Shown here: piece by piece, positions 4,360 to 22,035 of the stretch
How positions within the stretch are numbered: position 1 is the first letter of the stretch
Layout of the letters: the number at the start of each line of letters is the position of its first letter
Assembly: GCA_035700865.1 (NCBI GenBank)
Contig: DASSOH010000008.1
Location: forward strand, 1 to 54,869
From: Candidatus Limnocylindria bacterium
Lineage (GTDB): Bacteria; Chloroflexota; Limnocylindria; QHBO01
DNA: 54,869 bases
Direction of reading: 5' to 3'
Position numbers and translations under genes: made by a program
Notes under the pieces: generated by a model
The model's database searches: none
What the model was told of the DNA's origin: nothing
Seen by the model: only the letters and a program-made list of their open reading frames with translations

Positions 4360-5183
4360 TCGGATTCCTCCTCGTGGATGGGTTCGACCGGTGCCGCGGT
4401 GACGCGGCTCCGGGTCAGCGTGGTCTCCAGGCCGGCGGCCTGCAGCCGAGTGGCGGTGGCGCGCAGGCGCTCCGGATCGTCGTCGAGGCTGAAGACGGTC
4501 GGCCCGCTGCCGGTCAGCCTCGGCTCCCCGCCGGCGCGGCGGACCGCGTCGAACAGGTCGTCGAGCGCGGGACGCAGCCGGCGAGCGGGGGCGAGCAGGT
4601 CGTTCTCGAGCGTGCCCCACTCCTCGGGGCGCAGCTCGCCGAAGACGTCGGCGGTCGCCAGGCGGAACGGCGGATGGACCAGCACGACCCCGGTGTCGAG
4701 CGCCGGAGCCTCCCGGACGAGCTCGCCGACGCCGGCGACCGTGGCCGCGGCGACCGCGGCGGCGAAGAACGGGACGTCGGCACCGATCCGAGCCAGCGCC
4801 CGCAGATCGTCGGGGGTCGCCCGCTCCGGCCTCCCGCCCAGGATGCGGCCGAGCCGCCAGGCCGCCGCGGCATCGGAGGAGCCGCCGCCCAGGCCGGCCG
4901 CCGCCGGAATGCGCTTCTCCACCGTCAGGCAGACCAGGTCGGGCGGCGCCCCGAGCCCCGCCACCAGGCCGCGCCACGCCAGGTTTCGCTCGTCGAGCGG
5001 GAGGTCCGCGGCGTCACGGCCCTCGACGCGCAGCCCGCTGCAGCCGGGCAGGGCCAGCAGCCGGTCCGCCAGCTCGAGCAGGACGAGGTCGCTCTCCAGC
5101 TCGTGGTAGCCGTCGTCGCGCCGACCGATCACGCGCAGCGACAGGTTGAGCTTGGCTGGTGCCTCCAGGCGCAGCGGGTCCAT
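4356..5183 (-). CDS. ispE: 4-diphosphocytidyl-2-C-methyl-D-erythritol kinase
   Basis: MDPLRLEAPAKLNLSLRVIGRRDDGYHELES... and the GHMP kinase motif PAAAGLGGGSSDAAA. The ATG at 5181-5183 overlaps the rsmA TGA (ATGA). Confidence 0.9.
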   Translation of the reverse strand: MDPLRLEAPAKLNLSLRVIGRRDDGYHELESDLVLLELADRLLALPGCSGLRVEGRDAADLPLDERNLAWRGLVAGLGAPPDLVCLTVEKRIPAAAGLGGGSSDAAAAWRLGRILGGRPERATPDDLRALARIGADVPFFAAAVAAATVAGVGELVREAPALDTGVVLVHPPFRLATADVFGELRPEEWGTLENDLLAPARRLRPALDDLFDAVRRAGGEPRLTGSGPTVFSLDDDPERLRATATRLQAAGLETTLTRSRVTAAPVEPIHEEESE

Positions 5184-6052: not shown

Positions 6053-7095
6053 GCGGGCTCCAGCCACGGCAGGGCGAGATTGGGCACTGCCTCGAGCGCC
6101 GCGTCCGCTCGATCGCCCGCCGCGTACCGGAACCCGGCCGCCGCCCCGATCATCGCCCCGTTGTCGGTGCACCATGCCGGCGGCGGGACGCGAAGCGGCA
6201 GCCCCTCCGCCGCCAGGCGCTGCTGGAGCGTGCCACGCAGCGACCGGTTGGCGGCCACGCCACCGCCCAGCGCGACCTCCGCCACGCCCAGGTCGCGGGC
6301 CGCCGCCACCGTCTTGGTGGCCAGCGCGTCGACCACCGCCTCCTCGAAGGCGGCAGCCAGCCCGTCGACCGGGATCGGCTCCTTGCGGTCGCGGTAGCCC
6401 TGCACCTCGCGCAGGACGGCGGTCTTGAGCCCTGAGAAGCTGAAGTCGTAGGGACCCTCGGTCCGGGCGCGCGGGAAACGGGTCGCCGGCGTGGCGCCGA
6501 CCGCGGCGGCGCTGATGGCCGGGCCTCCCGGATACGGCAGGCCCAGCAGCCGTCCGACCTTGTCGAACGCCTCCCCCGCCGCATCGTCGACGGTCTGGCC
6601 CAGGAGCCGATACCGACCGTGGTCCTCCATCAGCACCAGCTGGGTGTGCCCGCCGCTGACGACCAGGTTCAGCAGCGGGAACTCCGGCTCGGCGGGCAGG
6701 GGCGCATCGGCCTCCACATCGGTCAGCCAGTTGGCGTAGATGTGGCCCTCGATGTGGTTGACGCCCACCAGCGGCAGGTCGTGCGCCACCGCCAGCGCCT
6801 TGGCCACGTTCACGCCGACCAGCAGCGAGCCGATGAGCCCCGGGCCGTAGGTCACGGCCACGGCGTCGATGTCGGACCACTCGACCGCCGCCTGCTCGAA
6901 TGCGGCCTCGAGCGTCGGCACGATCCAGCGCAGCTGGTGGCGCGCCGCCACCTCGGGGACGATCCCGCCGGTTGCGGCGTGCAGCGCGACCTGGGTCGCG
7001 ACCTGGTTCGCCTCGATGCGACGGCCGCCGACGACCACCGCGACGCCGGTCTCGTCGCACGAGGACTCGATGGCCAGGATCCGCGGCGCGCTCAC
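6049..7095 (-). CDS. tsaD: tRNA N6-adenosine threonylcarbamoyltransferase
   Basis: ILAIESSCDETGVAVV, HIEGHIY and GGGVAAN motifs of Kae1/TsaD. The GTG start at 7093-7095 overlaps the rimI TGA. Confidence 0.95.
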   Translation of the reverse strand: MSAPRILAIESSCDETGVAVVVGGRRIEANQVATQVALHAATGGIVPEVAARHQLRWIVPTLEAAFEQAAVEWSDIDAVAVTYGPGLIGSLLVGVNVAKALAVAHDLPLVGVNHIEGHIYANWLTDVEADAPLPAEPEFPLLNLVVSGGHTQLVLMEDHGRYRLLGQTVDDAAGEAFDKVGRLLGLPYPGGPAISAAAVGATPATRFPRARTEGPYDFSFSGLKTAVLREVQGYRDRKEPIPVDGLAAAFEEAVVDALATKTVAAARDLGVAEVALGGGVAANRSLRGTLQQRLAAEGLPLRVPPPAWCTDNGAMIGAAAGFRYAAGDRADAALEAVPNLALPWLEPA

Positions 7096-7571
7096 GTGCC
7101 GATCCTCTCGCGCTGGCCGGCGACGATCTGCCGCATGTGCGGCTCACGCAGCGCCGGCGTGGTCATGACCAGCGCGTCCTCGCCGTCGTCGGTGTAGTAG
7201 TGCGGCCGTCGCCCCACGATCTCGAAGCCGAACGACCGGTACAGGGCCTGCGCGGCGGCGTTCGAGACGCGGACCTCGAGCGTCATGCGGCGCGCCCCGA
7301 TCGCCACCGACAGCTCCGCGACGTTGAGCAGGAGCTGGCGGCCGATGCCCTGCCGGCGCCAATCGGGGTGGACCCCGAAGGTCGTGATGTGCGCCTCGTC
7401 GACCATGAGCCAGATGCCGGCGAAGCCGACGACACGCTCGCCCGCCCGCGCCACGACGTAGCGCGCCAGGCGGTTGCCCTTCAGCTCCTGCTCGAACGCG
7501 TACGCCGGCCACGGGGTGGCGAAGCTGAGCCGCTCGATCTCGTGGACCGCGGAGACGTCGTCCAGGCGCAT
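7092..7571 (-). CDS. rimI: ribosomal-protein-alanine N-acetyltransferase (GNAT)
   Basis: 159 aa with the GNAT acetyl-CoA motif RRQGIGRQLL. It sits in the conserved tsaB-rimI-tsaD position. ATG at 7569-7571 (alternative GTG at 7583). Confidence 0.85.
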   Translation of the reverse strand: MRLDDVSAVHEIERLSFATPWPAYAFEQELKGNRLARYVVARAGERVVGFAGIWLMVDEAHITTFGVHPDWRRQGIGRQLLLNVAELSVAIGARRMTLEVRVSNAAAQALYRSFGFEIVGRRPHYYTDDGEDALVMTTPALREPHMRQIVAGQRERIGT

Positions 7572-7594
7572 CGGGTCGACCACGACGCGGGCCG

Positions 7595-8233
7595 TCAGAG
7601 CCACGTCACGCGGCCCTCGCTGGCGGCGTCCTGGACCCCGCGCGGCGCGCGGAGGTAGATCGGCTCGATCGTGCGCAGGTCGTCGCCGCCGGGGGCCAGA
7701 CGCAGGCGCTCCGCGGCCAGCCGGGCCAGCGCGGCGGCACCACCACGCGGCGGCGTCGCGTTGGACAGCCCGAAGGCGCGAGCCAGCTCGGTGGGCACCA
7801 GGGGTCGGTCGCCGACGATGTCCGGCAGCCGATCGCGCTCCGCGATGTGCGGCGCGGCGTCGCCGGGCCGCAGCACGTAGGCCTCGGCGGCGCCCGCGCG
7901 CGCGACCGCGGCGGTCGCGTCCGGCTCGGAGGCCAGCCACGCCTGCAGGCTCGGCACGCCCACCAGCGGCCGCCCCAGCGAGAGCGCGAGCCCCTTGGCC
8001 AGGCTCATCGCCACGCGGAGGCCGGTGAAGGAGCCCGGACCCAGGCCGACGGCGATGGCACTCGCTCGGTCGAGGTGGTTGCCCGTCTGCTGCAGCAGCT
8101 CCAGGAGGCGTGGCAGCAGCTCCGCCGACTGTCGCTGCTCGCTGGACCACGCCGCATCGGCGATGAGCGTCCCGTCGGGCTGGGCGACCGCGATCGACAG
8201 ATCGGTCGACGCGCTCTCGATGGCGACGATCAC
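7595..8233 (-). CDS. tsaB: tRNA threonylcarbamoyladenosine biosynthesis protein TsaB
   Basis: VIVAIESASTDLSIAVA... and GLGPGSFTGLRV. The GTG at 8231-8233 overlaps the tsaE TGA (GTGA). The upstream 49 codons of the track ORF are Arg/Gly-rich. Confidence 0.88.
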   Translation of the reverse strand: MIVAIESASTDLSIAVAQPDGTLIADAAWSSEQRQSAELLPRLLELLQQTGNHLDRASAIAVGLGPGSFTGLRVAMSLAKGLALSLGRPLVGVPSLQAWLASEPDATAAVARAGAAEAYVLRPGDAAPHIAERDRLPDIVGDRPLVPTELARAFGLSNATPPRGGAAALARLAAERLRLAPGGDDLRTIEPIYLRAPRGVQDAASEGRVTWL

Positions 8234-8724
8234 GCCGGCAGCGCCTCGGCCGCCAGGCGTCGGTGCTGGTCGCCGAAGGCGCGCCACGAGATCCGGCGGT
8301 GCTCCGGGTCGGGCCCGTCGGCGTCGAGCGAGATCTCCAGCCGTCCGTCCGGCAGCCAGCCCTCCAGGCGGTCCGCCCACTCGACCACGGCCACGCCCGC
8401 GGCCTGGCGGTCGTCCAGCAGGCCGGCGGCGATCGCCTCCTCCGGGTCTCCCAGGCGGTAGGCGTCGACGTGGTAGAGCCGCAACCGGCCCGCGTGCTCG
8501 TTCATGAGGACGAAGGTGGGGCTGTTCACCACGCTGCGGACCCCGAGGCCCTCGGCGACACCCTTCGCGAGCTGCGTCTTCCCGGCGCCGAGCTCGCCGA
8601 TCAGCGCCAGCACGGTGCCCGGCACCGCGGCGCGGCCCAGGGCGCGGCCGAGCGCGCGCGTCTGCTCCGGCCCGGTCGTCGAGCCCACGCCGCTGGCGTC
8701 GGGGGCGAGGATGGCGGGTTCCAT
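8230..8724 (-). CDS. tsaE: tRNA threonylcarbamoyladenosine biosynthesis ATPase TsaE
   Basis: 164 aa with Walker A LIGELGAGKTQLAKG, then SPTFVLMNEH and YHVDAYRL. ATG at 8722-8724. Confidence 0.9.
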   Translation of the reverse strand: MEPAILAPDASGVGSTTGPEQTRALGRALGRAAVPGTVLALIGELGAGKTQLAKGVAEGLGVRSVVNSPTFVLMNEHAGRLRLYHVDAYRLGDPEEAIAAGLLDDRQAAGVAVVEWADRLEGWLPDGRLEISLDADGPDPEHRRISWRAFGDQHRRLAAEALPA

Positions 8725-8731
8725 GGGCGCC

Positions 8732-8737
8732 AGTATA
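8732..8737 (-). promoter_or_regulatory. TATACT -10 element 7 nt upstream of the tsaE ATG (leaderless-type promoter; no convincing -35)
   Basis: The minus strand reads cttccTATACTggcgcccATG. This is the same -10 hexamer as the rpoB, rpsL and infA promoters, and there is no SD. Confidence 0.4.
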
Positions 8738-8749
8738 GGAAGCGCGACC

Positions 8750-9781
8750 TCAGCCCTCCGACCGCGGCTCGGCTGCCTCCAGGTTGGCGAGCGGGACGAT
8801 GGCGGTGCGGGCATCGTCGAAGCGGACCAGGCCCGAGCGCGCCGCCACCCCGGAGGGGGCGGCGTAGGTCCCGGGCAGCTCGCGCAGCAGGATGCCCGTC
8901 GCGCCGGCCGATGGGCGCCGGTGGGCGATGACCCGATCCCCCGGTCGCGGCAGCGCGCGGCGCCCCGGCATCGGCTCCGCGTCGTACACGTACAGGCGCG
9001 CGCCATCTCCGAAGAGGCTGGCCATCCGGCCGTCGTGCGCGCGGAACCAGGCGAAGAGCGCCGGATCGAAGCTCGTCTTGCCGTACCCCTCGAGCAGCAG
9101 GATCGAGAAGGCGCCCCGCGCACCGCCGATCTGCCGGCGGCGCCGCTGAGCCGCCTCGAAGTCGCGGAGCTCCTTGTCCAGGGCGCCGGCGAGCACGATG
9201 CCGGCGACGCCCATGGCGCGTGCGCGCGTCAGCGTCTCGGCCGACGCGCGCGAGCCGCCGACCAGGATCCGCCCGGTGGCCCCCACGTCGATGGCGCCGG
9301 CGCGGAGCTCCTCGCCGGGCTCGTGGACGGCCACACGCAACTCACCGTGCACGGCCGCGCCGCTCCCCGCGATGCCGGTGACCAGCGCGCCATCGACGCG
9401 GATCTCGACGGCATCGGCGCCGACGCTCGCCACCTCGCCGCGCACGTGGCCCAGGATCGGCTCGGTCGGGCCGAGCGGAGCCACCAGGGCGGTGCCGTCA
9501 TCGGCGTCGTAGGCCAGGAAGAGACCGGCGTCGGCGATGCGAACCTCGCGCGACCCGTGCCGCGCCAGCAGGCCATCGGCCTCCAGCACGGAGCCCGGCG
9601 TCACCTCCAGCGCGGCCCGCGCGTCGGCGGCCGAGCACCGCAGCGGGACGGCCACCGGGATCGTCACCCCGGGCCCCGGCGGTCGCCGCGTGGCCAGCAC
9701 CTCGGCCGGCTCGACGCGGTGCCCGGCCTCGACCAGCACACTCGCGCCGACGGGCAGGCGGACGCGGTGGACCGCGCTCAC
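8750..9781 (-). CDS. hypothetical protein, 343 aa, last gene of the alr-tsaE insert operon; N-terminus resembles a barrel-sandwich hybrid (lipoyl/RnfC-N-like) motif
   Basis: High GC3 and balanced composition from VSAVHRVRLPVGASVLVEAGHRVEPAEVLA onward. The GTG at 9779-9781 overlaps the TGA of the upstream gene (GTGA). The rest of the 870-aa track ORF is Arg/Gly-rich and out of phase with the real upstream gene. Confidence 0.75.
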   Translation of the reverse strand: MSAVHRVRLPVGASVLVEAGHRVEPAEVLATRRPPGPGVTIPVAVPLRCSAADARAALEVTPGSVLEADGLLARHGSREVRIADAGLFLAYDADDGTALVAPLGPTEPILGHVRGEVASVGADAVEIRVDGALVTGIAGSGAAVHGELRVAVHEPGEELRAGAIDVGATGRILVGGSRASAETLTRARAMGVAGIVLAGALDKELRDFEAAQRRRRQIGGARGAFSILLLEGYGKTSFDPALFAWFRAHDGRMASLFGDGARLYVYDAEPMPGRRALPRPGDRVIAHRRPSAGATGILLRELPGTYAAPSGVAARSGLVRFDDARTAIVPLANLEAAEPRSEG

Positions 9782-11412
9782 GCCAGATGCTCCGTCGACG
9801 GTGACGTCTCGCGGCCCAGCGCATCGCGCCAGGCGGCGAGCACCGCACGCCGATCGTCCGCTCGGCGCGGCAGCTGCACCGGCACGCCCCGCGCGTCCAG
9901 CACGAGGCCGACGGCCCCGCCGGTGGCGGTGGCCGTGATGCGCGGCGATCGCCGCGGCGCCCCGATGCTCACGCCCTCCCCCATCTCGATGCTGAGCTCC
10001 GCGGTCTGACCCGGCGGCAGCGGCACGACCTGCAGCTGCCCGACGCGCAGCTCGATCGGCGACGACGCCGGCCACCCCGAGCGGTGAACGGTCACCCGCA
10101 TCGCCGGCCTGCCCGCGTCGCCACCGCGGGTCACGACGGTCGTGCCGAGCGGGACCAGGAGGTCCTCGGCGAGGAGGCCGATGCCCTCGCCGATCTCGGC
10201 GTCCGGGAGCGAGCCGAGCGGACCGAGCGTCGCGGCGGGGTCGATCGCGACCTGCGTGACACCCAGCGGCCGGACGCCGTCCAGCAGGATGCGCAGCGCC
10301 TGTGCCGGATGGGGCGCCGCCGCGATGGTCCGCCCCGCGCCGACCAGCAGGTCCAGCGGGCCGACGCCGCCCTCCTCGATGAGGGCCGCGGCCTGGAGCC
10401 GTGCCGCCACCTGCGTGGCGTGGAGCTCCTCCGCCGTCTCGGGCAGCGTCGCCGGTCGCGCGGCGAGGGTCTGGAGCACGTCGGCGATGGCGGCGTCGTC
10501 CCCGGCGTCCCCGGCCAGCCGCGCGACGCGGGCGGCGGCGCCGGGCATCGCCGCGAGCCCGGCAAGGCCGCCCTGGGCATGCACGCGCGTCGCGAGCGTG
10601 CCGTCCGGCTCGGCCAGGGCTCGCACCGCGGCGCGCGCCCCGACGTCGACGGCGAGCACGCGCAGCCGGCTGCGGGACGCCAGCGCGGCCACCGCGCGCG
10701 GGAAGCTCATGGCGGCCAGGTTCGTCTCCGGCTCGCCGCCGCCGATGGCGGCGATGAGGTCCTGCAGGTGCTCCCGCAGCGCGTCCGGTGTCTCGCGGCG
10801 TCCGTCCGGCCGGGGGTTCGGGACGCTCGTCACCGAACCGGGCTCGAAGAGCGCCTCGACCTCCTGGGCCAGATCCGCGCTGCCGGCCCACACCACCGGC
10901 CCGCCATCCGGCCGCCTGGCGGCGGCGGCAAGCGCGGCCGCCTCCAGCGCGCGCGGGCTGCGCGTGCCGTCGAAGCCCCCGGCCAGCAGCCACGCGTCCA
11001 CCTCGGCCTGCTGCAGCAACGAGAGCCGATCGGCGAGCGAGCGGCCGTCGTCCAGGCTCACGACGTCGACCACGCTCCAGCCGGCCGCCTCCGCCGCGCG
11101 CCGAGCCGCGCCCCCGGAGAGCTCGCGCGACACGGCCACCACCACCAGCCGGCGAGGCTGCCGCGCCGTGTGGCACTCGATGCGCGGCGCGCCCGCCACC
11201 AGCTCGTCCAGCCGGTCGACGAGTCGCGCGTCGGCCGCCTCCGCCAAGCGCTCCACCAGCGAGCGCCGCAGCTCGGCGGCGCCCCACGCCGTCGGTTGCG
11301 CCGCGTGGGCCACCACCCGCCACCGGCCGCGGACCACGCCGATCGCCGACGCCTTGGCCCACGCGGAGCCCACGTCCAGCAGCAGGGCGAGCTCGGCGTC
11401 CACCACCGTCAT
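9778..11412 (-). CDS. GlmL/MutL-like ASKHA (actin/HSP70-fold) ATPase family protein, 544 aa
   Basis: The N-terminus LLLDVGSAWAKASAIG matches the phosphate-1 motif of glutamate mutase L (DFGSTYTKVTAV). A second DVG motif (VLAVDVGARAAV) occurs mid-protein. The ATG at 11410-11412 overlaps the upstream TGA (ATGA). GC3 is very high. Confidence 0.7.
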   Translation of the reverse strand: MTVVDAELALLLDVGSAWAKASAIGVVRGRWRVVAHAAQPTAWGAAELRRSLVERLAEAADARLVDRLDELVAGAPRIECHTARQPRRLVVVAVSRELSGGAARRAAEAAGWSVVDVVSLDDGRSLADRLSLLQQAEVDAWLLAGGFDGTRSPRALEAAALAAAARRPDGGPVVWAGSADLAQEVEALFEPGSVTSVPNPRPDGRRETPDALREHLQDLIAAIGGGEPETNLAAMSFPRAVAALASRSRLRVLAVDVGARAAVRALAEPDGTLATRVHAQGGLAGLAAMPGAAARVARLAGDAGDDAAIADVLQTLAARPATLPETAEELHATQVAARLQAAALIEEGGVGPLDLLVGAGRTIAAAPHPAQALRILLDGVRPLGVTQVAIDPAATLGPLGSLPDAEIGEGIGLLAEDLLVPLGTTVVTRGGDAGRPAMRVTVHRSGWPASSPIELRVGQLQVVPLPPGQTAELSIEMGEGVSIGAPRRSPRITATATGGAVGLVLDARGVPVQLPRRADDRRAVLAAWRDALGRETSPSTEHLA

Positions 11413-12053
11413 CCGCCGATCCTCAACCAGTCGCCCAGCAGGAATCCGATGCGGTCGAGCAGCAGGATCAACCGCGAGAACAGCAGGTAGCCGAACCAGC
11501 CGCCGATGCCGGCGAGCAGGAGCCAGCGCCCCGCGCTGGCCGCCGGTCGCAGGAGCCGCCCGCGCGGCACGCCGCGCACGAAGCTGAGGAGCACGAGCAC
11601 CGTGATCACGCCGGCCGCGACCGTCGCGATCGTCGTCGCCACGTCCTCGCCACCGCGCACGCTGACCGCCGCCAGCTGCGGCAGGAGGGTTCCCACCACC
11701 GCGCCGCCGAGGGCGAACGCCGCCAGCGCCCCGATGGCCACCGACAGCGGGACGGCTCCCACCGCCCGCGGCAGCCACGGTGCCCCGGTCGCCGCGCCGA
11801 CCAGCGCGACCGCGAGCCACAGCTCCGGGCGTCCGCCCGGATCGGCCATGAGCGGCGCGACCACGCGCGGCACCAGCAGCTCGGTGATGACGATGAGCGC
11901 CAGGAAGCCGGTCGCCAGCCCGGCGAGCAGGTGCTGCGACCAGCCGAACAGCCGTCGCTCGCCCAGCAGTCCACCGAGCACCACCAGGGTCGCCGCCGCG
12001 GCCACCCAGGTGGCGATCGCGTCGGCCGGCGTGGCACCGAAGAAGCCGGTCAT
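11409..12053 (-). CDS. polytopic integral membrane protein (about 6 TM), 214 aa, unknown function
   Basis: There are six hydrophobic stretches (for example AIATWVAAAATLVVLGGLL and WLLLAGIGGWFGYLLFSRLILLL). The ATG at 12051-12053 overlaps the upstream TGA (ATGA). Confidence 0.75.
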   Translation of the reverse strand: MTGFFGATPADAIATWVAAAATLVVLGGLLGERRLFGWSQHLLAGLATGFLALIVITELLVPRVVAPLMADPGGRPELWLAVALVGAATGAPWLPRAVGAVPLSVAIGALAAFALGGAVVGTLLPQLAAVSVRGGEDVATTIATVAAGVITVLVLLSFVRGVPRGRLLRPAASAGRWLLLAGIGGWFGYLLFSRLILLLDRIGFLLGDWLRIGG

Positions 12054-12898
12054 GCCGCCTCCGTCCGCGGCCCAGGGGGCGTGCGTGCAGCGTCGGACCG
12101 TCCGCCACGTCGGACCAGGGCCGCGAGCAGCACGCCGATGGCGACCACCAGGCCGACGGCCACGCCGGTTCGGCTCGGCTCGCGCGGCTCGAGGAACCGA
12201 TCCAGCCGCTCGACGTCGAGCGTGGCCCGGTACGCGGCCCCGTCGCGTGGCGTGCCCAGCAGCGCGTCGACCTGGCCGGTGGCCAGGTACGGCCGCAGCT
12301 CGGGCAGCAGGATCGTCGGCGCCACGGCCAGCAGTGGCAGGCCCGGGACGCGCGGCAGCACCTGCTCGACCCATGCTCGCGGCCCGAGGTCGTTGCCGCC
12401 CACGACGACGATGGCCTGGGCCCCGGCCAGGCCATCGGTGGCGAGCACGCCGGCCAGGGCGCCGTCCGCCTCGATCGGCAGGCCGGCGCGCGTGAGGCGC
12501 ACCAGGGCCGCCTCGGCGCCCGGCACGAAGCCGAGGTCCAGGATGCGACGCGCGTTCACCGTGCCGCGCTGCAGCCGGTCCAGCTCCGCGAGGGCCAGGG
12601 CGCGGCCCTCCGGCGTGACGCTGACGATCGCCAGGCTCGCCTGGCGGTAGAGCAGGTCGGCCAGCAGCGCCCGGACGGTCGGGCGGATCTCGGCGTAGGT
12701 GCCGAGGTCCGGGTCGAAACCCACCACCACGGTCGATCGCGGCGGCAGCGCGTCCAGCGCCTGCGTCATGCGATCGGCCTCGGTGGTGTTCGACGACGCA
12801 AGCCGAAGCCACCCGACCGACGGCGCCAGCCACGCGACCGCCAGCAGCAGGAGCAGCAGCAGGGGTGCCAGGCGGATCGCCAGCAGGCGGTCACTCAT
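12050..12898 (-). CDS. bitopic membrane protein: N-terminal signal-anchor, about 200-aa extracytoplasmic domain, C-terminal TM; unknown function
   Basis: MSDRLLAIRLAPLLLLLLLAVAWLAP at the N-terminus and TGVAVGLVVAIGVLLAALV near the C-terminus. ATG at 12896-12898 (alternative GTG at 12907), overlapping the upstream stop by 8 nt. Confidence 0.72.
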   Translation of the reverse strand: MSDRLLAIRLAPLLLLLLLAVAWLAPSVGWLRLASSNTTEADRMTQALDALPPRSTVVVGFDPDLGTYAEIRPTVRALLADLLYRQASLAIVSVTPEGRALALAELDRLQRGTVNARRILDLGFVPGAEAALVRLTRAGLPIEADGALAGVLATDGLAGAQAIVVVGGNDLGPRAWVEQVLPRVPGLPLLAVAPTILLPELRPYLATGQVDALLGTPRDGAAYRATLDVERLDRFLEPREPSRTGVAVGLVVAIGVLLAALVRRGGRSDAARTPPGPRTEAA

Positions 12899-13508
12899 CT
12901 CCGGCACCGATGCCGAGCATGGTGCGCGCCGCCACCACGGCGCCCAGGATGGCGATGCCCAGCAGCAGGCCCCGGAAGACGCCGCCGATGGGCACGGCCA
13001 GCGCCCACGCGGCCGCTCCGTCGAGCCAGCCGCCGGCCGTGCCCCCGACCGGCAGCAGGAGGACCAGGATCGCGACCGCCGCGAGGGCCATCACGATCGC
13101 CTCGCGGCTGCGCGCCGAGATCGAGCGCTGGAAGGCGAGCAGCGTGCTCACGAAGAGCAGCCCGAAGAGCGAGGCACCCAGCGGCACGAGCAGGGCGTTC
13201 AGGATCCACAGCACCGCCGGATCGGAGGCGCCGCTCGCGCCGGGCCGCAGCCCCGCCAGGAGCACGGCCGCCATGCCCGCCAGCACGAGCACCGCGCCGA
13301 CCGGATCGCCGCGTCGGCGCCACAGGTCGCCGGCGCGACGGACGGCCAGGGCGGCGACCGCGGCCAGGGCCGCGCCGGCGGAGACGAGGATCGCCGCGTC
13401 CACGACGATCCCGGCCAGCTCGCCGAGGGACGCGTTGACGACGAGGTAATCGACGAGCAGGAGCAGGCCGGCGACGACGACCAGCGCCGGAATCGTGGCG
13501 CGTCTCAC
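12891..13508 (-). CDS. polytopic integral membrane protein (about 6 TM), 205 aa, unknown function
   Basis: There are six hydrophobic stretches (IPALVVVAGLLLLVDYLVV ... GLLLGIAILGAVVAA). The GTG at 13506-13508 overlaps the upstream TGA (GTGA). Confidence 0.75.
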   Translation of the reverse strand: MRRATIPALVVVAGLLLLVDYLVVNASLGELAGIVVDAAILVSAGAALAAVAALAVRRAGDLWRRRGDPVGAVLVLAGMAAVLLAGLRPGASGASDPAVLWILNALLVPLGASLFGLLFVSTLLAFQRSISARSREAIVMALAAVAILVLLLPVGGTAGGWLDGAAAWALAVPIGGVFRGLLLGIAILGAVVAARTMLGIGAGDE

Positions 13509-14356
13509 CCGCCGCTGGTCCCGAGCAGGAACGGCACCAGGTCCACGACGTCCAGCAGCGCCAGCACGCTGACCAGGATGGCCACCAACACGGCCATGGC
13601 GATGAGCCGGTTCGCCGCCGTCACCGCCGTGCGCTCCTCGACGACGGCGCCGAGGTCGGCGGCGACCTGGAACGGCTCCGGGCCGACGAGGCCGTCCGGC
13701 GAGGCGAGGAGGACCGTCCCCGCCTGCGACGCCTCCGCGGTCCCGGCGGTCAGGGACCCGGCCGTCCCTCGCAGGCCGGCCAGGTGGAGCTGCGCCTCCT
13801 CGCGCAGGCTGCCGATCGCGATGGCCGCTGCCGGGCGCGCTCGCGCGGTGAGGGGCAGGCCGGCCGCCACGCCGCGGCCCTCGCCCACCATCACCACCCT
13901 CGAGCGCCCGACGCGCTCCTCGGTCGACGTCCGCCGATGGGCGGCATCGATGGTCACCTCCGCGACCACGCCGGCGAGCGGATCGTTGGTCAGGACGCGC
14001 AACGGCACGCCGCTGCGCGCGGCCGCGCGCGCGACGTGATCCAGCACCGGCATGGCGGCCAGGGTCTGGAGCCGCGCCAGCGCATCGGTCGAGCGGGCGA
14101 TCCCGGCGGCGCCGATCGACACGACCGCATCCGTCCCGGCCTCCGCGGCCAGCGCCATGGCGCGGCCGATGGCGCCCAGCCCACCGGCGTCGCCCGACGT
14201 CCAGCGCGTCACCGGACGAGCCACCAGCTGCAGCAGGACGAGGAGGATGCCGAGCACGACCAGCGTCGGGCCCACCTCGAAGCGCAGCGAGGAGGCGCTC
14301 AGCACCTCGCTGACGAAGCCGAGGACCTCGCCGACCAGGTCAGCGGGGCTCGGCAC
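13505..14356 (-). CDS. bitopic membrane protein: TM near the N-terminus, about 200-aa central domain, C-terminal TM; unknown function
   Basis: GPTLVVLGILLVLLQLV near the N-terminus and NRLIAMAVLVAILVSVLALL near the C-terminus. The GTG at 14354-14356 overlaps the upstream small gene by 17 nt, so the start is less certain. Confidence 0.7.
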   Translation of the reverse strand: MPSPADLVGEVLGFVSEVLSASSLRFEVGPTLVVLGILLVLLQLVARPVTRWTSGDAGGLGAIGRAMALAAEAGTDAVVSIGAAGIARSTDALARLQTLAAMPVLDHVARAAARSGVPLRVLTNDPLAGVVAEVTIDAAHRRTSTEERVGRSRVVMVGEGRGVAAGLPLTARARPAAAIAIGSLREEAQLHLAGLRGTAGSLTAGTAEASQAGTVLLASPDGLVGPEPFQVAADLGAVVEERTAVTAANRLIAMAVLVAILVSVLALLDVVDLVPFLLGTSGG

Positions 14357-14600
14357 GCGATCGCTCCAGCTCGTCGAGCCCGTCGGTCAGCCGTTGCAGC
14401 GCAGCCTCGTCCGCCATGAATCGCGCCAGACCGCCGGTCCGCGACCCGCCGATCGCGCGGAGCAGCGGGCCCACGGCGGCACCGAGGTCCGACAGGAGTG
14501 GCGCCATGGGTCGGTGGGACTCGGCGAGGAGCCGCGCCGGCTCCGTCAGTCCGCGCGCGTCGAGGGCGCGCGCCAGGCGCTCCGCGGCATGGTCGCTCAT
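14340..14600 (-). CDS. small (86 aa) predicted helical protein, unknown function
   Basis: MSDHAAERLARALDARGLTEPARLLAESH... The ATG at 14598-14600 overlaps the macro-domain gene TGA (ATGA). The 707-aa track ORF upstream of this Met is Arg/Gly-rich and overlaps alr and the macro gene in other frames. Confidence 0.6.
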   Translation of the reverse strand: MSDHAAERLARALDARGLTEPARLLAESHRPMAPLLSDLGAAVGPLLRAIGGSRTGGLARFMADEAALQRLTDGLDELERSRAEPR

Positions 14601-15118
14601 CGGATTCCGGCGCGGTGGGCGGCCAGCACGGCCGCCACGGCGCGCGTCTCCGCCACGTTCCCAGTGGCGATGACGACCGACTCCAGCGGTTCGGTGGCCG
14701 CGTCGTACAGCGTGGCGACCAGGACCTCGGCCGCCTCGGACGGATCGAATGCGCCGTGCTCGGTGCCGAGGAGCGAGAAGGCCACGCGGCGCAGCTGAAG
14801 CGGCGCCACGAAGGCCAGCGCGGACCGCACGCCGCTGCGCAGCTGCTCCGGATCCGCGCGACGGTCGTGCCCGACCGCGACCGCATGGATGACGTACGCG
14901 GCCGCCAGCGAGCCGGCGGTGGTGGCGATCGCCGTGCCGGGGGCGATCGGTCCCTGCTCGACGGCCGCGCGCTCGATCTCCGCGCCTCCATGACGGGCGA
15001 TCGACGCGGCGGCGCCCGCGTTCATGAAGAGGGACTCGGTCGCGCCCACGACGAGCGCGTCCACCTCGAGCTCGGCGATCCCGCCCTGCCAGACGTCGAT
15101 CTCGATCGGTGCTGCCAT
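14597..15118 (-). CDS. macro domain protein (ADP-ribose-binding/Appr-1''-p processing fold) with divergent active-site motifs
   Basis: 173 aa. IDVWQGGIAELEVDALVVGATESL...NAGAAASIARHGG...AYVIHAVAVG...VAFSLLGTEHGAF aligns by eye to the macro-domain blocks GDIT..DAIVNAAN..GGGV..AI, YVIH.VGP and IAFP.ISTG. Confidence 0.75.
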   Translation of the reverse strand: MAAPIEIDVWQGGIAELEVDALVVGATESLFMNAGAAASIARHGGAEIERAAVEQGPIAPGTAIATTAGSLAAAYVIHAVAVGHDRRADPEQLRSGVRSALAFVAPLQLRRVAFSLLGTEHGAFDPSEAAEVLVATLYDAATEPLESVVIATGNVAETRAVAAVLAAHRAGIR

Positions 15119-15151
15119 CGCTCGGTCTCGCTCGGTGCCTCGCTTGGTCGG

Positions 15152-16282
15152 TCAACCGGCGCCGAGGTGGAGCCGTGGTAGGCGCCGCCGCAGCGCGGTG
15201 GTGACCTCGTAGTTGATCGTCCGCCGCTCGCCGGCCACCTCGTCGGCCGTGATCCGCGCGCCCCCCTGCTCGCCGATGAGGACGAACTCGTCGTCGTAGG
15301 TTACACCAGCCACCCCGCCCAGATCGACGGTCAGACCGTCCATGCTCACGGCCCCGACGATGGGGGCGCGCTGCCCGCGCACCAGCACCGAGCCGTTGTT
15401 CGCGTGCGCCCGTGGCCAGCCGTCGCCGTACCCGATGCCCAGCGTCGCGATGCGCGTCGGTCGCGCCGCCCGGTACCGCAGGCCGTAGCCGATCGCCTCG
15501 CCGGCGTCGAGGTCGAAGAGCCGCAGCGGGCGAGCCTTCAAGCTCAGCGCCGGCCGCAGTCCGATGTCTCGTTCGGTCACCCAGGACGGCAGCATCCCGT
15601 ACAGCGCCAGCCCGGGCCGCACCGCGTCGACCATGCGCACCACCTCGGCCACGATGTCGCCCGTCGCGCTGACGTGGACGAGCCCCGGGTCGATGCCGGC
15701 CGAGCGCATCGCATCGAGCGTGCGGGCCAGGCGCAGCAGCTGGACGTCGGTGTACGCGTCGTCCTCGCCGGGGACGGCGAGGTGGCTCATGGTCCCGGCC
15801 AGCGTCACCCGCGGCGACGCCGCAACCCGGGCGGCCAGCGTCAGCGCCTCCTCGGGCGTCGCGCCCTGGCGGCCGAGCCCCGTGTCGACCTTGACGTGGA
15901 CGCCGACCCGCGAGCCGGCCGCCTCGGCCGCCCGTTCCAGCCATCCGATGGCGCGCTCGTCGTAGACGATCGGCTCGAGGCCATGCGCGACGATCTCGTC
16001 CGCCTCCGTGGCGCCGATCCCCCACAGCACCAGCAGGGGCACGCCGATCCCGGCCTTCCGCAGCCCGATCGCCTCGTCGATGGTCGCGACCGCCAACCGC
16101 TCGACTCCCTCCGCCACGAGGGTTCGCGCGACCTCGACATCCCCGTGCCCGTACGCGTTCGCCTTGACCACGCCGATGACCGAGGCTCCGGGACTCAGGT
16201 CGCGCACGACGCGCAGGTTCTGGCGGATGGCCGCGTGGTCGACCTCGATCCACGCCCGGTGCGGGCTGCCGGGCTCCGTCAT
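15152..16282 (-). CDS. alr: alanine racemase
   Basis: PLP-Lys motif VVKANAYGHG, plus VKVDTGLGRQG and IGYGDGWPR. The ATG at 16280-16282 overlaps the nnrD TGA (ATGA). The upstream part of the 525-aa track ORF is junk. Confidence 0.93.
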   Translation of the reverse strand: MTEPGSPHRAWIEVDHAAIRQNLRVVRDLSPGASVIGVVKANAYGHGDVEVARTLVAEGVERLAVATIDEAIGLRKAGIGVPLLVLWGIGATEADEIVAHGLEPIVYDERAIGWLERAAEAAGSRVGVHVKVDTGLGRQGATPEEALTLAARVAASPRVTLAGTMSHLAVPGEDDAYTDVQLLRLARTLDAMRSAGIDPGLVHVSATGDIVAEVVRMVDAVRPGLALYGMLPSWVTERDIGLRPALSLKARPLRLFDLDAGEAIGYGLRYRAARPTRIATLGIGYGDGWPRAHANNGSVLVRGQRAPIVGAVSMDGLTVDLGGVAGVTYDDEFVLIGEQGGARITADEVAGERRTINYEVTTALRRRLPRLHLGAG

Positions 16283-17184
16283 CGGTCCTCCGGCTCGGGA
16301 GTGCGCAGCCGTGTGGCGGCGGCCGGCAACAGCGCCGCGATGTCGCGCGCCAGCACGCCGGCCCGCCCGATGCGCGCCTCCGCCAGCATGCCGGCGGTGC
16401 CGTGCAGCGCGACGCCGCACACCGCCGCCTCGAATGGCTGGACGCCCGCCGCCAGCAGCGCACCGATCGCCCCGGCCAGTACGTCCCCGCTCCCCGCGGT
16501 CGCCAGCGCCGGCGTGGCGATGGCCGAGGTCATGGCGCGACCGTCGGGGGCCGCGATGACCGTCGCGGCGCCCTTCAGCACCACCACCTGCCGGAATCGC
16601 GCGGCCGCCACCGCGGCGGCCGTGGCGCGCCCCTCGTCGTCGCCCGGGTCCATGACCTCGGTCCCGGTGAGCCGCGCGAATTCCCCGGGGTGCGGCGTGA
16701 GCACCAGGCTGCCGCGCACGCCCTCCCACCAGCGCGGGACGGTGGCCAGCGCGTTGAGACCGTCCGCGTCGACGACGCAGGGACGGTGGACCGCCTCGAT
16801 CAGCTGTCGCGCGCGTCGCTGCCCGGCCGGCTGACGGCCGAGGCCGGGTCCCACCACCAGCGCGTCGCGGTCGGCGGCGGCCGCGGCGATGGTCCGCCAG
16901 CCCGACGGGGCGACCAGCCCACGGCCCTCCTCGTCCAGGGGGAGCCAGGTGAGCTCCGGCACCCCGGCCGCCAGGTGACCGACGATCGATTCGCCGATGG
17001 CCACCTCCACCAGGCCGGCGCCGGCGCGCATGGCGCCGAGCCCGCTCAGCAGGGCCGCACCTGGATAGCTGAAGGACCCGGCCACGACCAGCACCGAGCC
17101 GAAGGTGCCCTTGTGCGCCCGGTCGGACCGATCCGGCAGGTGGTCGACGAGCCAGCGCGCGGTGATCGGGGTGGCGGAGGCCAT
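16279..17184 (-). CDS. nnrD: ADP-dependent NAD(P)H-hydrate dehydratase (YjeF C-terminal/carbohydrate-kinase domain only)
   Basis: HKGTFGSVLVVAGS, LTPHPGEFARL and ATAGSGDVLAG motifs. Confidence 0.88.
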   Translation of the reverse strand: MASATPITARWLVDHLPDRSDRAHKGTFGSVLVVAGSFSYPGAALLSGLGAMRAGAGLVEVAIGESIVGHLAAGVPELTWLPLDEEGRGLVAPSGWRTIAAAAADRDALVVGPGLGRQPAGQRRARQLIEAVHRPCVVDADGLNALATVPRWWEGVRGSLVLTPHPGEFARLTGTEVMDPGDDEGRATAAAVAAARFRQVVVLKGAATVIAAPDGRAMTSAIATPALATAGSGDVLAGAIGALLAAGVQPFEAAVCGVALHGTAGMLAEARIGRAGVLARDIAALLPAAATRLRTPEPEDR

Positions 17185-17193
17185 GGGATGCGC

Positions 17194-17571
17194 TCAGTCG
17201 TGCCGGCGGTGCGCAACGGCCACCGCGACGGCGAGGTGCCGCTCGTGGGAGATGGAGACGGTGACCTCATCCAGGTCGAGGTCCTGCGCGCGGCGCGCGG
17301 CGCGGCCGTGGAGGCTGACCTGCGGCGCGCCGGCACGGTTCGGCAGGATCTCGATCTCACGCCAGCCGACGCCACGCACCCCGAGGCCCAGCACCTTGCT
17401 GATCGCCTCCTTCGCCGCCCAGCGCCCGGCGATACGGTGCGGCTTGCGGCCGCAGTAGCGCTGCTCGGGCTCGGTCAGGACGCGCAGCCGGAAGCGGTCG
17501 GGGAAGCGTCCCAGCACCGTGACGATGCGGTCGATGTCGATCAGGTCGATCCCGATGTCGTGCCGGCTCAT
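17194..17571 (-). CDS. acpS: holo-[acyl-carrier-protein] synthase
   Basis: 125 aa with IGIDLIDIDRI, WAAKEAISKVLG and SISHE motifs. Confidence 0.9.
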   Translation of the reverse strand: MSRHDIGIDLIDIDRIVTVLGRFPDRFRLRVLTEPEQRYCGRKPHRIAGRWAAKEAISKVLGLGVRGVGWREIEILPNRAGAPQVSLHGRAARRAQDLDLDEVTVSISHERHLAVAVAVAHRRHD

Positions 17572-17605
17572 CGCCGTGCAGCGTACCCGACTCCGCGCGT
17601 CTCCC

Positions 17606-19435
17606 CTACTCGACCGTCACCGATTTGGCGAGGTTGCGCGGCTGGTCGACGTCCGTGCCGCGGGCGACAGCGATCTCGTAGGCGAGCAGCTGCAGCGGCA
17701 GCACCGCGATCACCGGGCTGATCGCCTCCGGCGTCTCCGGGACGTGGAGCACGTCCTGCGCGTAGTGGTCGATGTGGTCGTCGCCCTCGGTCGCGATGGC
17801 GATGATCGGCGCCGAGCGTGCCCGCGCCTCGGCCACGTTGCTGACCACCTTCTCGTACAGCGACCCCTTGGTGGCGATCGCCACCAGCGGCGTCTCGGGA
17901 TCGAGCAGCGCGATCGGACCGTGCTTCAGCTCGCCGGCGGCGTAGCCTTCGGCGTGGACGTAGCTCAGCTCCTTGAGCTTGAGGGCGCCCTCCATGGCGA
18001 TCGGGAAGCCCAGTCCACGGCCGATGTAGATGAAGTCGCGCACGTTCGCGTAGCGGCGGGCGAGCTTCTTGATCTGCGGACCCAGCTTCAGCGTCTCCGC
18101 CGCCAGGCGCGGCAGCGTGCGCAGCGCCTGTCCGAGGACGCGCGCGCGGTGCTCCGGCATCCGGCCGCGCAGCTCGGCGACCTGCATCGCGATCATCTGG
18201 AGCACCAGCACCTGGGTGACGAACGCCTTGGTGCTGGCCACCGCGATCTCGGGACCGGCCTGCAGGTAGCAGACCGCATCCGCCCCGCGCGTGATGGCGC
18301 TGCCCACGACGTTGGTGACGACGGCGATCAGGGCGCCCTGCTCGGACGCCATCTTCAGCGGCGCCAGCGTATCGGCCGTCTCACCGGACTGGCTGACGCC
18401 GATGACCAGCGTGCGCTCGTCGATGGGCGGTGGGCTGTAGCGCATCTCGGACCCCACCTGCATGACGGCCGGGATGCCGGTCCAGTCCTGCAGCAGGTAC
18501 GCGCCGACCTGGGCGGCATAGCTGGCCGTGCCGCAGCCCACGACGTAGATGCGCTCGATCTCCCGCAGCCGATCGGCGATCGGATCGAGCTCCTCCAGGT
18601 GCACCGCGCCGTTGCCGCTCACGCGGCCACGCAGGCACTCCTGGATGGCGTGCGGCTGCTCGTAGATCTCCTTCAGCGTGAAGTGCGGGAAGCCGCCCTT
18701 CTCGGCCGCCTCGATGTTCCAGTGGATCTCGGTGACCTCGCGCTCGACCTCGGCGCCATCCAGGCCCAGGATCCGGGTCCGCTCGGGCGTGACGTCGGCG
18801 ATGTCGCCCTCGTGGAGGATGACGACGTTCTTGGTGTGCTCGAGGATGGCCGGCACGTCGCTGGCCAGGAAGCCCTCGCCGTCGCCGAGGCCCACGATCA
18901 ACGGCACGTTCATCCGTGCGCCGACGATGCGGTCGGGATGGTCGGTGTGCATCACGCCGATGGCGTAGGCGCCCCGCACCTCCCCCAGCGCAACTCGCAC
19001 GGCCTCGACCAGGTCGCCCGAGTACTTCTCCTCGATCAGGTGCGCGAGCACCTCGGTGTCCGTGTCGGAGGTGAACCGATGCCCGCCGGCGGCGAGGCGC
19101 TTCTTCAGCTCGCTGTAGTTCTCGATGATCCCGTTGTGGATCAGCGCCAGCTTGCCGGTGCAGTCGACGTGCGGGTGCGCGTTCGTGTCGTTCGGCGGCC
19201 CGTGGGTCGCCCAGCGCGTGTGACCGATGCCGGGATGCCCGGCCGGGGCGTCGCCGTTGAGGTGCTCGGTCAGGTTGGTCAGCTTGCCGGCCTTCTTCTC
19301 GAGGAAGACGTTGCCCGACTCGGTGAGGACGGCGATCCCGGCCGAGTCGTAGCCGCGGTACTCGAGGCGGCGGAGGCCCTCGAGCAGGATCGGCGCCGCG
19401 TCACGCGGTCCGACGTACCCGACGATGCCGCACAT
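17606..19435 (-). CDS. glmS: glutamine--fructose-6-phosphate aminotransferase (isomerising)
   Basis: MCGIVGYVG N-terminal nucleophile, two SIS domains and a C-terminal ...AKSVTVE. GAGGAGG SD upstream. Confidence 0.97.
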   Translation of the reverse strand: MCGIVGYVGPRDAAPILLEGLRRLEYRGYDSAGIAVLTESGNVFLEKKAGKLTNLTEHLNGDAPAGHPGIGHTRWATHGPPNDTNAHPHVDCTGKLALIHNGIIENYSELKKRLAAGGHRFTSDTDTEVLAHLIEEKYSGDLVEAVRVALGEVRGAYAIGVMHTDHPDRIVGARMNVPLIVGLGDGEGFLASDVPAILEHTKNVVILHEGDIADVTPERTRILGLDGAEVEREVTEIHWNIEAAEKGGFPHFTLKEIYEQPHAIQECLRGRVSGNGAVHLEELDPIADRLREIERIYVVGCGTASYAAQVGAYLLQDWTGIPAVMQVGSEMRYSPPPIDERTLVIGVSQSGETADTLAPLKMASEQGALIAVVTNVVGSAITRGADAVCYLQAGPEIAVASTKAFVTQVLVLQMIAMQVAELRGRMPEHRARVLGQALRTLPRLAAETLKLGPQIKKLARRYANVRDFIYIGRGLGFPIAMEGALKLKELSYVHAEGYAAGELKHGPIALLDPETPLVAIATKGSLYEKVVSNVAEARARSAPIIAIATEGDDHIDHYAQDVLHVPETPEAISPVIAVLPLQLLAYEIAVARGTDVDQPRNLAKSVTVE

Positions 19436-22032: not shown

Positions 22033-22035
22033 CGG

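Follow-up and report, generated by a model that had tools for sequence, protein, structure and literature searches.

Between the genes alr and tsaE of a Candidatus Limnocylindria genome lie eight minus-strand genes, which a sequence-only reading, made without database searches, had described as a translationally coupled operon of unknown function. The DNA in question is a stretch of 54,869 nucleotides (nt) from contig DASSOH010000008.1 of GenBank assembly GCA_035700865.1, referred to below as the window. The locus raises the question of whether these genes form a system that is kept in other genomes and, if so, which known kind of system it resembles. Seven of the eight genes form a conserved unit of two modules, namely, a soluble trio (h-G-P) present in every lineage examined and a membrane quartet (B1-Ta-B2-Tb); the eighth, a macro-domain gene, is a lineage-specific add-on outside the conserved core. 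We rate the cluster as new in composition, in that no known kind of system appears to share it, and its mechanism is one that we infer.

The seven-gene unit recurs in the same order across several phyla, relatives of G occur in hundreds of species, and conserved multi-gene systems that span several phyla and lack a function are rare. The cluster stands in the housekeeping backbone of the genome, beside ribosomal, cell-wall precursor and N6-threonylcarbamoyladenosine (t6A) genes. Five of its protein families lack a Pfam family, and one more has only a domain of unknown function (DUF). The ORFs (open reading frames) called by the sequence-only reading were all found on the minus strand, at the following coordinates and lengths in amino acids (aa):

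14597-15118, minus strand: macro-domain protein, 173 aa (Pfam Macro, 1.7e-18; 67.1 bits against a cut-off of 22)
14340-14600, minus strand: h86 (h), small soluble protein, 86 aa, without Pfam or NCBIfam match; member of the h-G-P trio
13505-14356, minus strand: B1, DUF6754 protein, 283 aa (Pfam DUF6754, 9.1e-11); found in 42 loci
12891-13508, minus strand: Ta, protein with six transmembrane segments (6-TM), 205 aa; six hydrophobic segments, no Pfam family
12050-12898, minus strand: B2, two-pass protein, 282 aa, with TM segments at residues 5-23 and 244-262; found in 53 loci
11409-12053, minus strand: Tb, polytopic membrane protein, 214 aa; found in 56 loci
9778-11412, minus strand: G, GlmL-like ATPase in the superfamily of acetate and sugar kinases, Hsc70 and actin (ASKHA), 544 aa (PF13941, 7.7e-24, residues 10-341)
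8750-9781, minus strand: P, obligate partner of G, 343 aa; adjoins G in 78 loci

Conservation and gene order of the cluster

Relatives of G were sought in a scan of one genome per GTDB species, with distant clade members and the motif G-[LVI]-I-I-D-A-R-G-R as query, and at least 567 were confirmed. A total of 87 loci were fetched, 80 of them from these relatives; all ORFs were translated and searched with the eight window proteins, and family hidden Markov models (HMMs) were iterated. The 80 loci are all from metagenome-assembled genomes (MAGs) and are skewed to Anaerolineae-like sequences, because the scan alignment held distant clade members only. Their labels on the Chloroflexota side are Anaerolineae, Thermoflexia, Caldilineaceae, Ardenticatenales and Chloroflexia; the others include Bacillota (with Peptococcaceae), Zixibacteriota, Cloacimonadota, Armatimonadota, Poribacteria, Acidobacteriota and more. 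In an exhaustive search of 1.84 billion cluster representatives, G matched 546 clusters at 50% identity (E<=1e-10), most of them over the full length and at 25-35% identity. A profile search of a 5.8-billion-protein set, made with a word filter, returned close relatives only.

Close relatives of the whole cluster are found in two Limnocylindria contigs (L001 and L002, 1.4 and 2.2 Mb), where the same eight genes lie in identical order between alr and tsaE; G is 70% and 57% identical, and all eight proteins have orthologues at 36-70% identity. Beyond them, co-occurrence and kept order in related genomes, set beforehand as a test of the eight-gene proposal, were observed on a wide scale: about 37 loci, drawn mainly from a number of Chloroflexota classes, have all seven genes colinear as h86-B1-Ta-B2-Tb-G-P, and others are cut by contig ends. 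Four loci of other phyla (L050, L056, L079 and L081), including Zixibacteriota and Armatimonadota MAGs, have the rearranged order h-G-P-B1-Ta-B2-Tb, and the quartet is repeated in L056. The lineages with a detected quartet thus include Chloroflexota as well as MAGs labelled Zixibacteriota or Armatimonadota. In Bacillota, Cloacimonadota and Poribacteria loci, h-G-P alone was detected, often in tandem; two or three tandem (h-)G-P modules occur in the Bacillota MAGs L074 (8241-18972), L083 (8215-18112), L049 and L068. Each of the seven core proteins of the window shows 22-32% identity to its counterpart in loci of other phyla, so that the seven appear to have diverged together. Of the proposed eight-gene system, seven genes stand as a conserved unit; the macro gene was found only in the window, L001 and L002 among the 87 loci, and, because it is confined to these close relatives, the conserved unit counts seven genes and not eight.

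The location between alr and tsaE was read correctly, but an insertion there is doubtful. In several Bacillota MAGs, h-G-P occupies the same slot as in the window, between glmS-acpS-alr and thiL-tsaE-tsaB-rimI-tsaD, which argues for an old or recurrent position and against a local insertion. Anaerolineae and most of the remaining loci have the cluster at another position. Locus L057 (Candidatus Aquidulcis sp., assigned by NCBI to Limnocylindria) carries an Anaerolineae-like version of the cluster outside the alr-tsaE interval, with a long zinc-ribbon tail on B2 and without the macro gene, and the window-type layout is therefore not universal in NCBI's Limnocylindria. Genes for a PALP protein (dependent on pyridoxal phosphate), a Peptidase_C26 protein (gamma-glutamyl hydrolase-like) and a Peptidase_S58/DmpA aminopeptidase recur as a trio between alr and h in eight Bacillota loci (L043, L044, L045, L051, L055, L058, L074 and L083); they are probably a separate unit of amino-acid or peptide metabolism.

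All overlaps read between neighbouring genes of the eight were borne out: ATGA at 14597-14600 (macro/h86, indicating translational coupling), 17 nt at 14340-14356, GTGA at 13505-13508, ATGAGTGA at 12891-12898, ATGA at 12050-12053 and at 11409-11412, and GTGA at 9778-9781. The tight coupling of the eight genes is real but is no marker of operon boundaries. The nnrD/alr overlap outside the eight genes is also an ATGA (16279-16282) and every gap in the run from glmS to tsaE is at most 34 nt; because this packing continues beyond the eight genes, coupling cannot set the operon limits. Overlaps or gaps of at most 34 nt were seen at the junctions checked throughout the co-directional array from glmS to rsmA (about 5183-19435), including a tsaE/tsaB overlap at 8230-8236. 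The GC content at third codon positions (GC3) is 0.86-0.95 in all eight frames, against 0.52-0.58 at second positions (GC2), and the coding potential is clear; the flanking genes tsaD, glmS, acpS, nnrD and alr have GC3 of 0.92-0.95, as in the eight frames. This shared composition, and the same layout in relatives at 57-70% identity, uphold the view of a resident system rather than a recent island. A scan for consensus promoters and terminators found no site on either strand over 15 kb, a result that carries no weight at 75% GC. Profile searches returned Macro, DUF6754 (283-aa protein) and PF13941 MutL (544-aa protein), as the domain calls had said; the other five proteins (h86, Ta, B2, Tb and P) have no Pfam or NCBIfam family, and NCBIfam gave only sub-threshold macro and GlmL matches for the eight window proteins.

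The soluble trio and the membrane quartet

G scores 84.7 bits against PF13941 (cut-off 27), which places it in the ASKHA superfamily. Its AlphaFold2 model (predicted local distance difference test, pLDDT, 93.7; predicted template modelling score, pTM, 0.93) shows an ASKHA fold that contains a Rossmann-like insert and ends in a beta-rich domain, and profile and model together confirm the call of a GlmL/MutL-like ASKHA ATPase. Among 55 diverse members, residues D13, G15, G258 and G360, which fall in the phosphate and adenosine motifs typical of ASKHA proteins, show almost no variation, and D391, G400, G498, D506 and R508 are invariant; the alignment shows that G retains the residues expected for ASKHA nucleotide binding. 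Foldseek returned only generic ASKHA matches, with PilM best (3.8e-8) and N-methylhydantoinase, acetophenone/acetone carboxylase, DnaK, Ppx/GppA, FtsA and CoA dehydratase activators among the others. The TM-score to PilM is 0.24-0.35, and hydantoinase, DnaK, Ppx and FtsA score alike; the likeness to PilM is not specific, because the matches are generic and their TM-scores low. A sequence search of the PDB with G gave no match.

The relationship of G to GlmL was examined with curated models. The window protein scores 44.9 bits against NF040745 (cut-off 475) and 44.4 bits against TIGR01319 (cut-off 204), in matches that cover only profile positions 1 to 170-200, and the best family member tested, from Bacillota (L074), also stays below both cut-offs with 213 and 152 bits. 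The GlmL and Or-4 models can be aligned with Bacillota members over their entire length (E 7e-63 and 1.7e-61), with scores of about 210 bits where the cut-offs are 475 and 600. The GlmL-type models have 450-459 positions and end at residues 487-503 in P0338 and in the L074 protein, and residues 420-540 of the window protein form an extra beta-rich domain (~120 aa) that bears the invariant G498, D506 and R508 and the motif G-[LVI]-I-I-D-A-R-G-R. End-to-end alignment below the cut-offs makes G a sister family to the accessory proteins of B12 mutases, extended by a C-terminal domain. No gene for an adenosylcobalamin (AdoCbl) mutase or B12-binding subunit (glmS/mutS, glmE/mutE, oraS/oraE) was found in the window between the glucosamine-6-phosphate synthase gene glmS and rsmA, and the precomputed Pfam lists for L001, L002 and L084-L087 contain no AdoCbl mutase gene. 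The label 'glutamate mutase L', which the sources attach to relatives of G, is probably a misnomer; it is misleading in hundreds of genomes and could yield false predictions of glutamate fermentation in metagenomes.

G and P are adjacent wherever the contig is long enough. The N-terminus of P is a barrel-sandwich-hybrid domain (RnfC_N matches in 26 of 36 members, Biotin_lipoyl in 23 and NQRA_N in 9), and its C-terminus is a KOW/SH3-like barrel (KOW in 11 of 36). The best RnfC_N match in the family has an E-value of 4.9e-9, the window protein itself is unmatched, and biotin-lipoyl models match nearly as often. The two ends are joined by an alpha/beta region in which the motifs G-G-S and T-E-G-F-G are conserved; a reading of this region as a swivelling domain of PEP utilizers came from motifs only and was dropped as unsupported by Pfam. 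The AlphaFold2 model of P has a pLDDT of 63 and is good at both ends. Foldseek matched it to the KOW domains of NusG and Spt5 and to Tudor-like barrels, and a PDB profile search to NusG, Spt5 KOW, NqrA (weakly) and biotin carriers. One copy of P has a duplicated barrel-sandwich-hybrid domain in L049 and L068, and one copy has a large insertion and lacks the KOW end in L074 and L083.

Natural fusions show a physical link of G and P in some lineages and repeated ties of G to the membrane. G and P form one protein in two lineages (P0338, 1003 aa; P0345, 995 aa), on both of which the P-family HMM matches over its full length (E 2e-92 and 2.5e-108). Membrane attachment takes several forms: G is preceded by an N-terminal TM segment in P0380, by a signal peptide, an M1-peptidase domain (probably extracytoplasmic) and a TM segment in P0349, and, in P0312, by an N-terminal region containing a TSP3 repeat together with a TM segment. 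A P gene follows both P0380 and P0349, and a small gene lies ahead of P0380. An apparent Tb-G fusion (P0257, 568 aa) was not counted; it contains long stretches that look out of frame and probably stems from a locus like that of the window whose assembly is frameshifted or of low quality.

Neighbouring genes of the G-P modules were also recorded. Two or three modules lie side by side in L084 and L085. At a single locus (L086, 1083-5347), a G-P fusion gene ends in a stop that overlaps the start of a Wzz/GNVR gene; Wzz, a polysaccharide co-polymerase, has a two-TM topology, as has B2. Directly downstream of P in 24 Chloroflexota loci (e.g. L011, 11945-12601; L015, 10510-11232) lies a gene for a protein of about 130-225 aa rich in proline and threonine (PT-rich), with an N-terminal TM segment and a Pro/Thr-rich linker. 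Its C-terminus carries an LPxTG-like motif (PETG, PGTG, PQTG or PTTG), a hydrophobic stretch and an Arg-rich tail, that is, a sortase-type signal; the protein has no Pfam family and its gene is absent from the window.

The third member of the trio, h86, was found in 62 loci with the iterated HMM, always directly upstream of B1 in Chloroflexota or of G in other phyla. Where the quartet is not upstream of h, a gene for a 2-TM protein directly precedes h in 14 loci of other phyla (e.g. L051, 7804-8346; L059, 7743-8357; L056, 7147-7584). This protein has about 170 aa (range about 120-235) and a conserved C-terminal soluble domain without a Pfam family, and it may serve as an alternative membrane anchor.

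In the quartet, the 283- and 282-aa proteins had been called bitopic, which proved wrong: each is two-pass, with one hydrophobic segment at either end and a large domain between. The TM segments of B1 (residues 28-46 and 252-270) flank a domain of ~200 aa. This domain is predicted to be cytoplasmic by the positive-inside rule, since across 44 homologues the count of lysine and arginine is 3.8 just past the first TM segment and 0.6 ahead of it. The ~220-aa alpha/beta domain of B2 is predicted from the charge bias of 54 homologues to lie outside the cytoplasm, with both ends inside. Ta, found in 43 loci and always directly after B1, has six TM segments in 39 of 45 family members, and its charge pattern suggests an N-terminus inside. 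Six TM segments occur in 37 of 58 members of the Tb family, and the window protein shows four at a stricter threshold; Tb always stands directly before G in Chloroflexota. Charge bias hints at opposite orientations of Ta and Tb and of B1 and B2. The similarity between B1 and B2 is weak (hhalign P 6.5e-4, E 0.0022, probability 13-28%), such that the two may be distant paralogues, and no homology between Ta and Tb was detectable; for these two reasons no origin of the quartet by duplication is claimed. The consensus sequences of Ta and Tb contain no cysteine.

Most Chloroflexota outside Limnocylindria carry a further element in B2, that is, an N-terminal cytoplasmic double zinc ribbon, after which comes a disordered tail, acidic and rich in Pro and Glu, that is 200-2,300 residues long and contains P-[DEGAS]-W-[LMIV] 2-52 times. 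Besides the charge bias, the ribbon speaks for the predicted topology of B2. The motif reaches 17.8 per 1,000 aa in these tails against a background of 0.19 (93-fold), and the tail looks like a multivalent docking array. Loci with ribbon and tail include L011, L017 (2488-5349), L022, L025, L029, L042 (3306-8303), L065 and L067; the window B2 is without a long P-x-W-L tail. No NCBIfam or PDB relative was found for h, Ta, Tb or B2, and whole-family Pfam scans, which also covered the 2-TM protein, gave scattered single matches. PDB profile searches with the B1 and B2 families returned no real relative; matches of B2 to designed WRAP-T proteins were judged spurious.

The macro-domain gene and the chromosomal surroundings

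The call of a divergent macro domain holds, as the Pfam match is joined by 40 PDB macro domains at E<=1e-3, of which TTHA0132 (2dx6) is the closest solved relative. Among NCBIfam models the highest score, 73 bits, falls short of the cut-off of 246. At the positions that, judged by eye, would correspond to the catalytic N-A-A-N and G-G-G-V-D of MacroD-type hydrolases of ADP-ribose and O-acetyl-ADP-ribose, as in Escherichia coli YmdB, the protein has V-V-G-A-T and N-A-G-A-A, and its catalytic motifs look degenerate. It is perhaps a locally recruited ligand sensor or binding module, or a passenger in the transcript.

The closest relatives of the 544-aa G and the 343-aa P come from Chloroflexota, mostly labelled Candidatus Limnocylindria. 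The synteny of Mycobacterium tuberculosis, which the sequence-only reading had used as its reference, is the wrong yardstick, because the genome belongs to this phylum and not to an actinobacterium. Both flanking genes lie outside the system:

15152-16282, minus strand: alr, alanine racemase, upstream flank (Pfam Ala_racemase_N 3.5e-61, Ala_racemase_C 9.9e-39)
8230-8724, minus strand: tsaE, downstream flank (66% identity to an L001 gene with PF02367 TsaE)

The tsaE start lies 25 nt past the stop codon of P, and a TATACT hexamer stands 9 nt upstream of the tsaE ATG. The gene run of the window comprises cdaA, a YbbR-domain gene, glmS, acpS, nnrD and alr, then the eight genes, and downstream tsaE, tsaB, rimI, tsaD and rsmA, followed by glmU and a CNNM/CorC gene. 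The cdaA gene (DAC domain and CdaA_N) and the YbbR-domain gene occupy 20794-23070 on the minus strand upstream of glmS, and in L001 glmM lies between these two genes and glmS, where it would be expected in the window too. The cdaA-YbbR order is the arrangement of the cyclic di-AMP cyclase operon typical of Bacillota. Further genes, read by eye from ORFs at about 23-54 kb, are presumably rpoB/rpoC, fusA, tuf and ribosomal protein genes. At the other end of the window, a TspO/MBR family gene (586-1062, plus strand; 2.7e-45) runs opposite to the array and adjoins a polyprenyl synthetase gene of which the window edge (1-585) holds the 3' part. An antisense ORF of about 500-510 aa (8477-10009, plus strand; GC3 0.85, GC2 0.64) overlaps P and G; we take it to be a shadow ORF, of a kind common in high-GC DNA, and not a gene.

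Proposed mechanism and relation to known systems

Our preferred, though still tentative, interpretation is that the cluster encodes a machine that is driven by ATP, docks on the membrane and acts on the cell envelope. G, P and h would form a cytoplasmic complex that docks on the membrane via the cytoplasmic domain of B1 and the cytoplasmic tails of B2. G would be a conformational switch driven by ATP and ADP rather than a kinase, as has been proposed for its relatives GlmL, EutA and diol dehydratase reactivase. A review counts these among the non-polymerising enzyme families of the actin superfamily (PMC5597319). The nucleotide cycle of G would be passed through the membrane to the outward-facing domain of B2 or, in variants, to a directly fused outer domain, and the output would be the control or power of a cell-envelope process, with a logic akin to that of PilM-PilN/O, FtsA-FtsN or FtsEX. 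Hints of the envelope come from the LPxTG-like PT-rich protein encoded after P and from the Wzz/GNVR gene of L086. It is possible, but doubtful, that the cluster represents a new class in which a GlmL-like ATPase with P powers a 16-TM module, made of two halves (each a two-pass and a 6-TM protein) in opposite orientation; we hold it just as doubtful that such a class would be an ancient envelope mechanotransducer in several phyla, unrelated to ATP-binding cassette (ABC), AAA+ and known actin-based systems.

Several points weigh against a machine of the envelope. The hints just mentioned are lineage-specific neighbours, one of them from a single locus. The quartet was not detected beside h-G-P in the Bacillota, Cloacimonadota and Poribacteria loci, so the core function may need no quartet, or the quartet may lie elsewhere or be too diverged there. 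The Foldseek TM-scores of G are low (0.18-0.35) and its matches generic for ASKHA, and the model of P is poor in its middle domain (pLDDT <50 over residues 130-275). The mechanism rests on architecture and analogy, because no component has an experimentally characterised close relative. If the envelope machine is true, the reactivase branch of the actin superfamily would extend from B12 enzymes to membrane complexes, and the cluster would offer a first handle on the envelope biology of Chloroflexota, a large and poorly understood phylum.

The cluster could instead be a membrane transporter, in which Ta and Tb (12 TM segments) form the path, B2 binds the substrate and G supplies the energy. Two 6-TM proteins of ~200 aa and a two-pass protein with an extracytoplasmic alpha/beta domain would suit this role, and the hinted opposite orientations of Ta and Tb and of B1 and B2 recall inverted-repeat transporters, but homology of Ta and Tb is undetectable, and searches of Pfam, NCBIfam and PDB profiles link Ta, Tb and B2 to no transporter family. 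We consider a transporter unlikely, and that low estimate includes the variant in which G phosphorylates the imported compound (group translocation). Kinases do belong to the ASKHA superfamily, yet G is closest to the GlmL/Or-4 accessory proteins. The compound was guessed to be a cell-wall sugar or amino acid because of the glmS/alr neighbourhood; the cluster does lie among glmS, glmM (presumed in the window), alr and glmU in the window and several Bacillota MAGs, but this neighbourhood is lost in Anaerolineae and other classes. Moreover, h-G-P stands in many genomes, also in tandem, without a detected quartet beside it. A somewhat smaller chance is given to G as a polymerising, actin-like cytoskeletal protein, whose filaments would be anchored by the membrane proteins and serve shape, division or positioning. 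PilM and FtsA are among the best structural matches of G, but hydantoinases, DnaK and Ppx have about equal Foldseek scores, and by sequence G groups with GlmL/Or-4; glutamate mutase, EutA and diol dehydratase reactivase are listed as non-polymerising (PMC5597319). The pairing of a two-pass protein with a polytopic partner of ~200 aa recalls MreC and MreD, but Pfam and family scans found no homology to MreC, MreD or FtsN. The multivalent P-x-W-L tail of B2 in most Chloroflexota could recruit a polymer, and the cluster sits among housekeeping genes.

Two further explanations are considered very improbable, and the rest of the probability is kept for functions other than those named here. One holds that G is a true 'glutamate mutase L', the reactivating chaperone of an AdoCbl mutase, and that its neighbours are unrelated. 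The PF13941 match, the name given to its relatives and the full-length alignment of Bacillota members to the GlmL and Or-4 models speak for it. Against it, all scores are far under the curated cut-offs (44.9/475 and 44.4/204 for the window, 213/475 for the best member), no mutase or B12-binding gene occurs in the window neighbourhood or in the loci with Pfam lists, and G has the extra conserved C-terminal domain of ~120 aa. G also always occurs with P; two lineages have the two as one fused protein, and other lineages have G joined to membrane anchors. The other, to which we give as little credence, is that there is no system, but eight unrelated genes in a compact, co-directional housekeeping array. 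The tight spacing does reach beyond the eight genes (nnrD/alr, tsaE/tsaB), and the macro gene behaves as an independent add-on. However, the seven-gene order is kept in about 37 loci and has moved as one to unrelated neighbourhoods, the two modules swap places as blocks in other phyla, and G-P fusions exist, all of which contradicts this explanation for the seven core genes.

Pfam, NCBIfam, PDB and PADLOC searches agree with the earlier statement that the cluster matches no characterised transporter, secretion or division system, and no defence system was matched either; none of the eight proteins matches a PADLOC defence model at E<=0.01. No paper on this seven-gene system was found in the literature, and PDB searches found no solved structure of a close relative of the core proteins. 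The nearest known proteins are GlmL/MutL and Or-4 (PF13941, TIGR01319, NF040745, NF040744), which have the ASKHA fold in common with G; PF13941 matches the first ~340 residues of G, and both sides probably act as ATP-dependent conformational switches. GlmL has ~450-460 aa, ends with the ASKHA core and is encoded beside AdoCbl mutase subunits. G, in contrast, has 544 aa, stays under every curated cut-off, carries the extra C-terminal beta domain, always occurs with P and h, is membrane-linked or membrane-fused, and has h, P and the membrane quartet as neighbours.

The remaining likenesses concern architecture. PilM-PilN-PilO, FtsA-FtsN and MreB-RodZ/MreC/MreD likewise combine an actin-fold ATPase at the inner face with membrane proteins that have outward domains. 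However, PilN, PilO, FtsN, MreC and MreD have no sequence homology with the quartet proteins, B1 and B2 carry one TM segment near each end, the cluster includes no gene of a pilus, divisome or elongasome, and the annotated loci contain no pilus genes. Rnf and Nqr resemble the cluster, perhaps, in a peripheral subunit like P, with a barrel-sandwich-hybrid N-terminus followed by an alpha/beta domain, in two 6-TM subunits of ~200 aa, possibly in opposite orientation, and in anchored subunits with outward domains; they differ in that an ASKHA ATPase stands here in place of redox subunits, and no component matches Rnf-Nqr, FMN_bind or Fer4/Fe-S models. Wzz, CapA/CapB and Wzc, polysaccharide co-polymerases that work with a cytoplasmic ATPase, share with B2 the topology of two TM segments flanking an outward domain, but Pfam scans of 41 B2 family members gave no match to Wzz, and the link is one locus (L086). 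The mechanotransmission systems FtsEX and MacB use an ABC ATPase where the cluster has an ASKHA ATPase, and no part is homologous. The likeness to them is one of analogy, in that ATP hydrolysis in the cytoplasm would reshape an extracytoplasmic domain acting on the envelope, and the variant that joins G to an M1-peptidase-like domain by a single TM segment is consistent with this logic.

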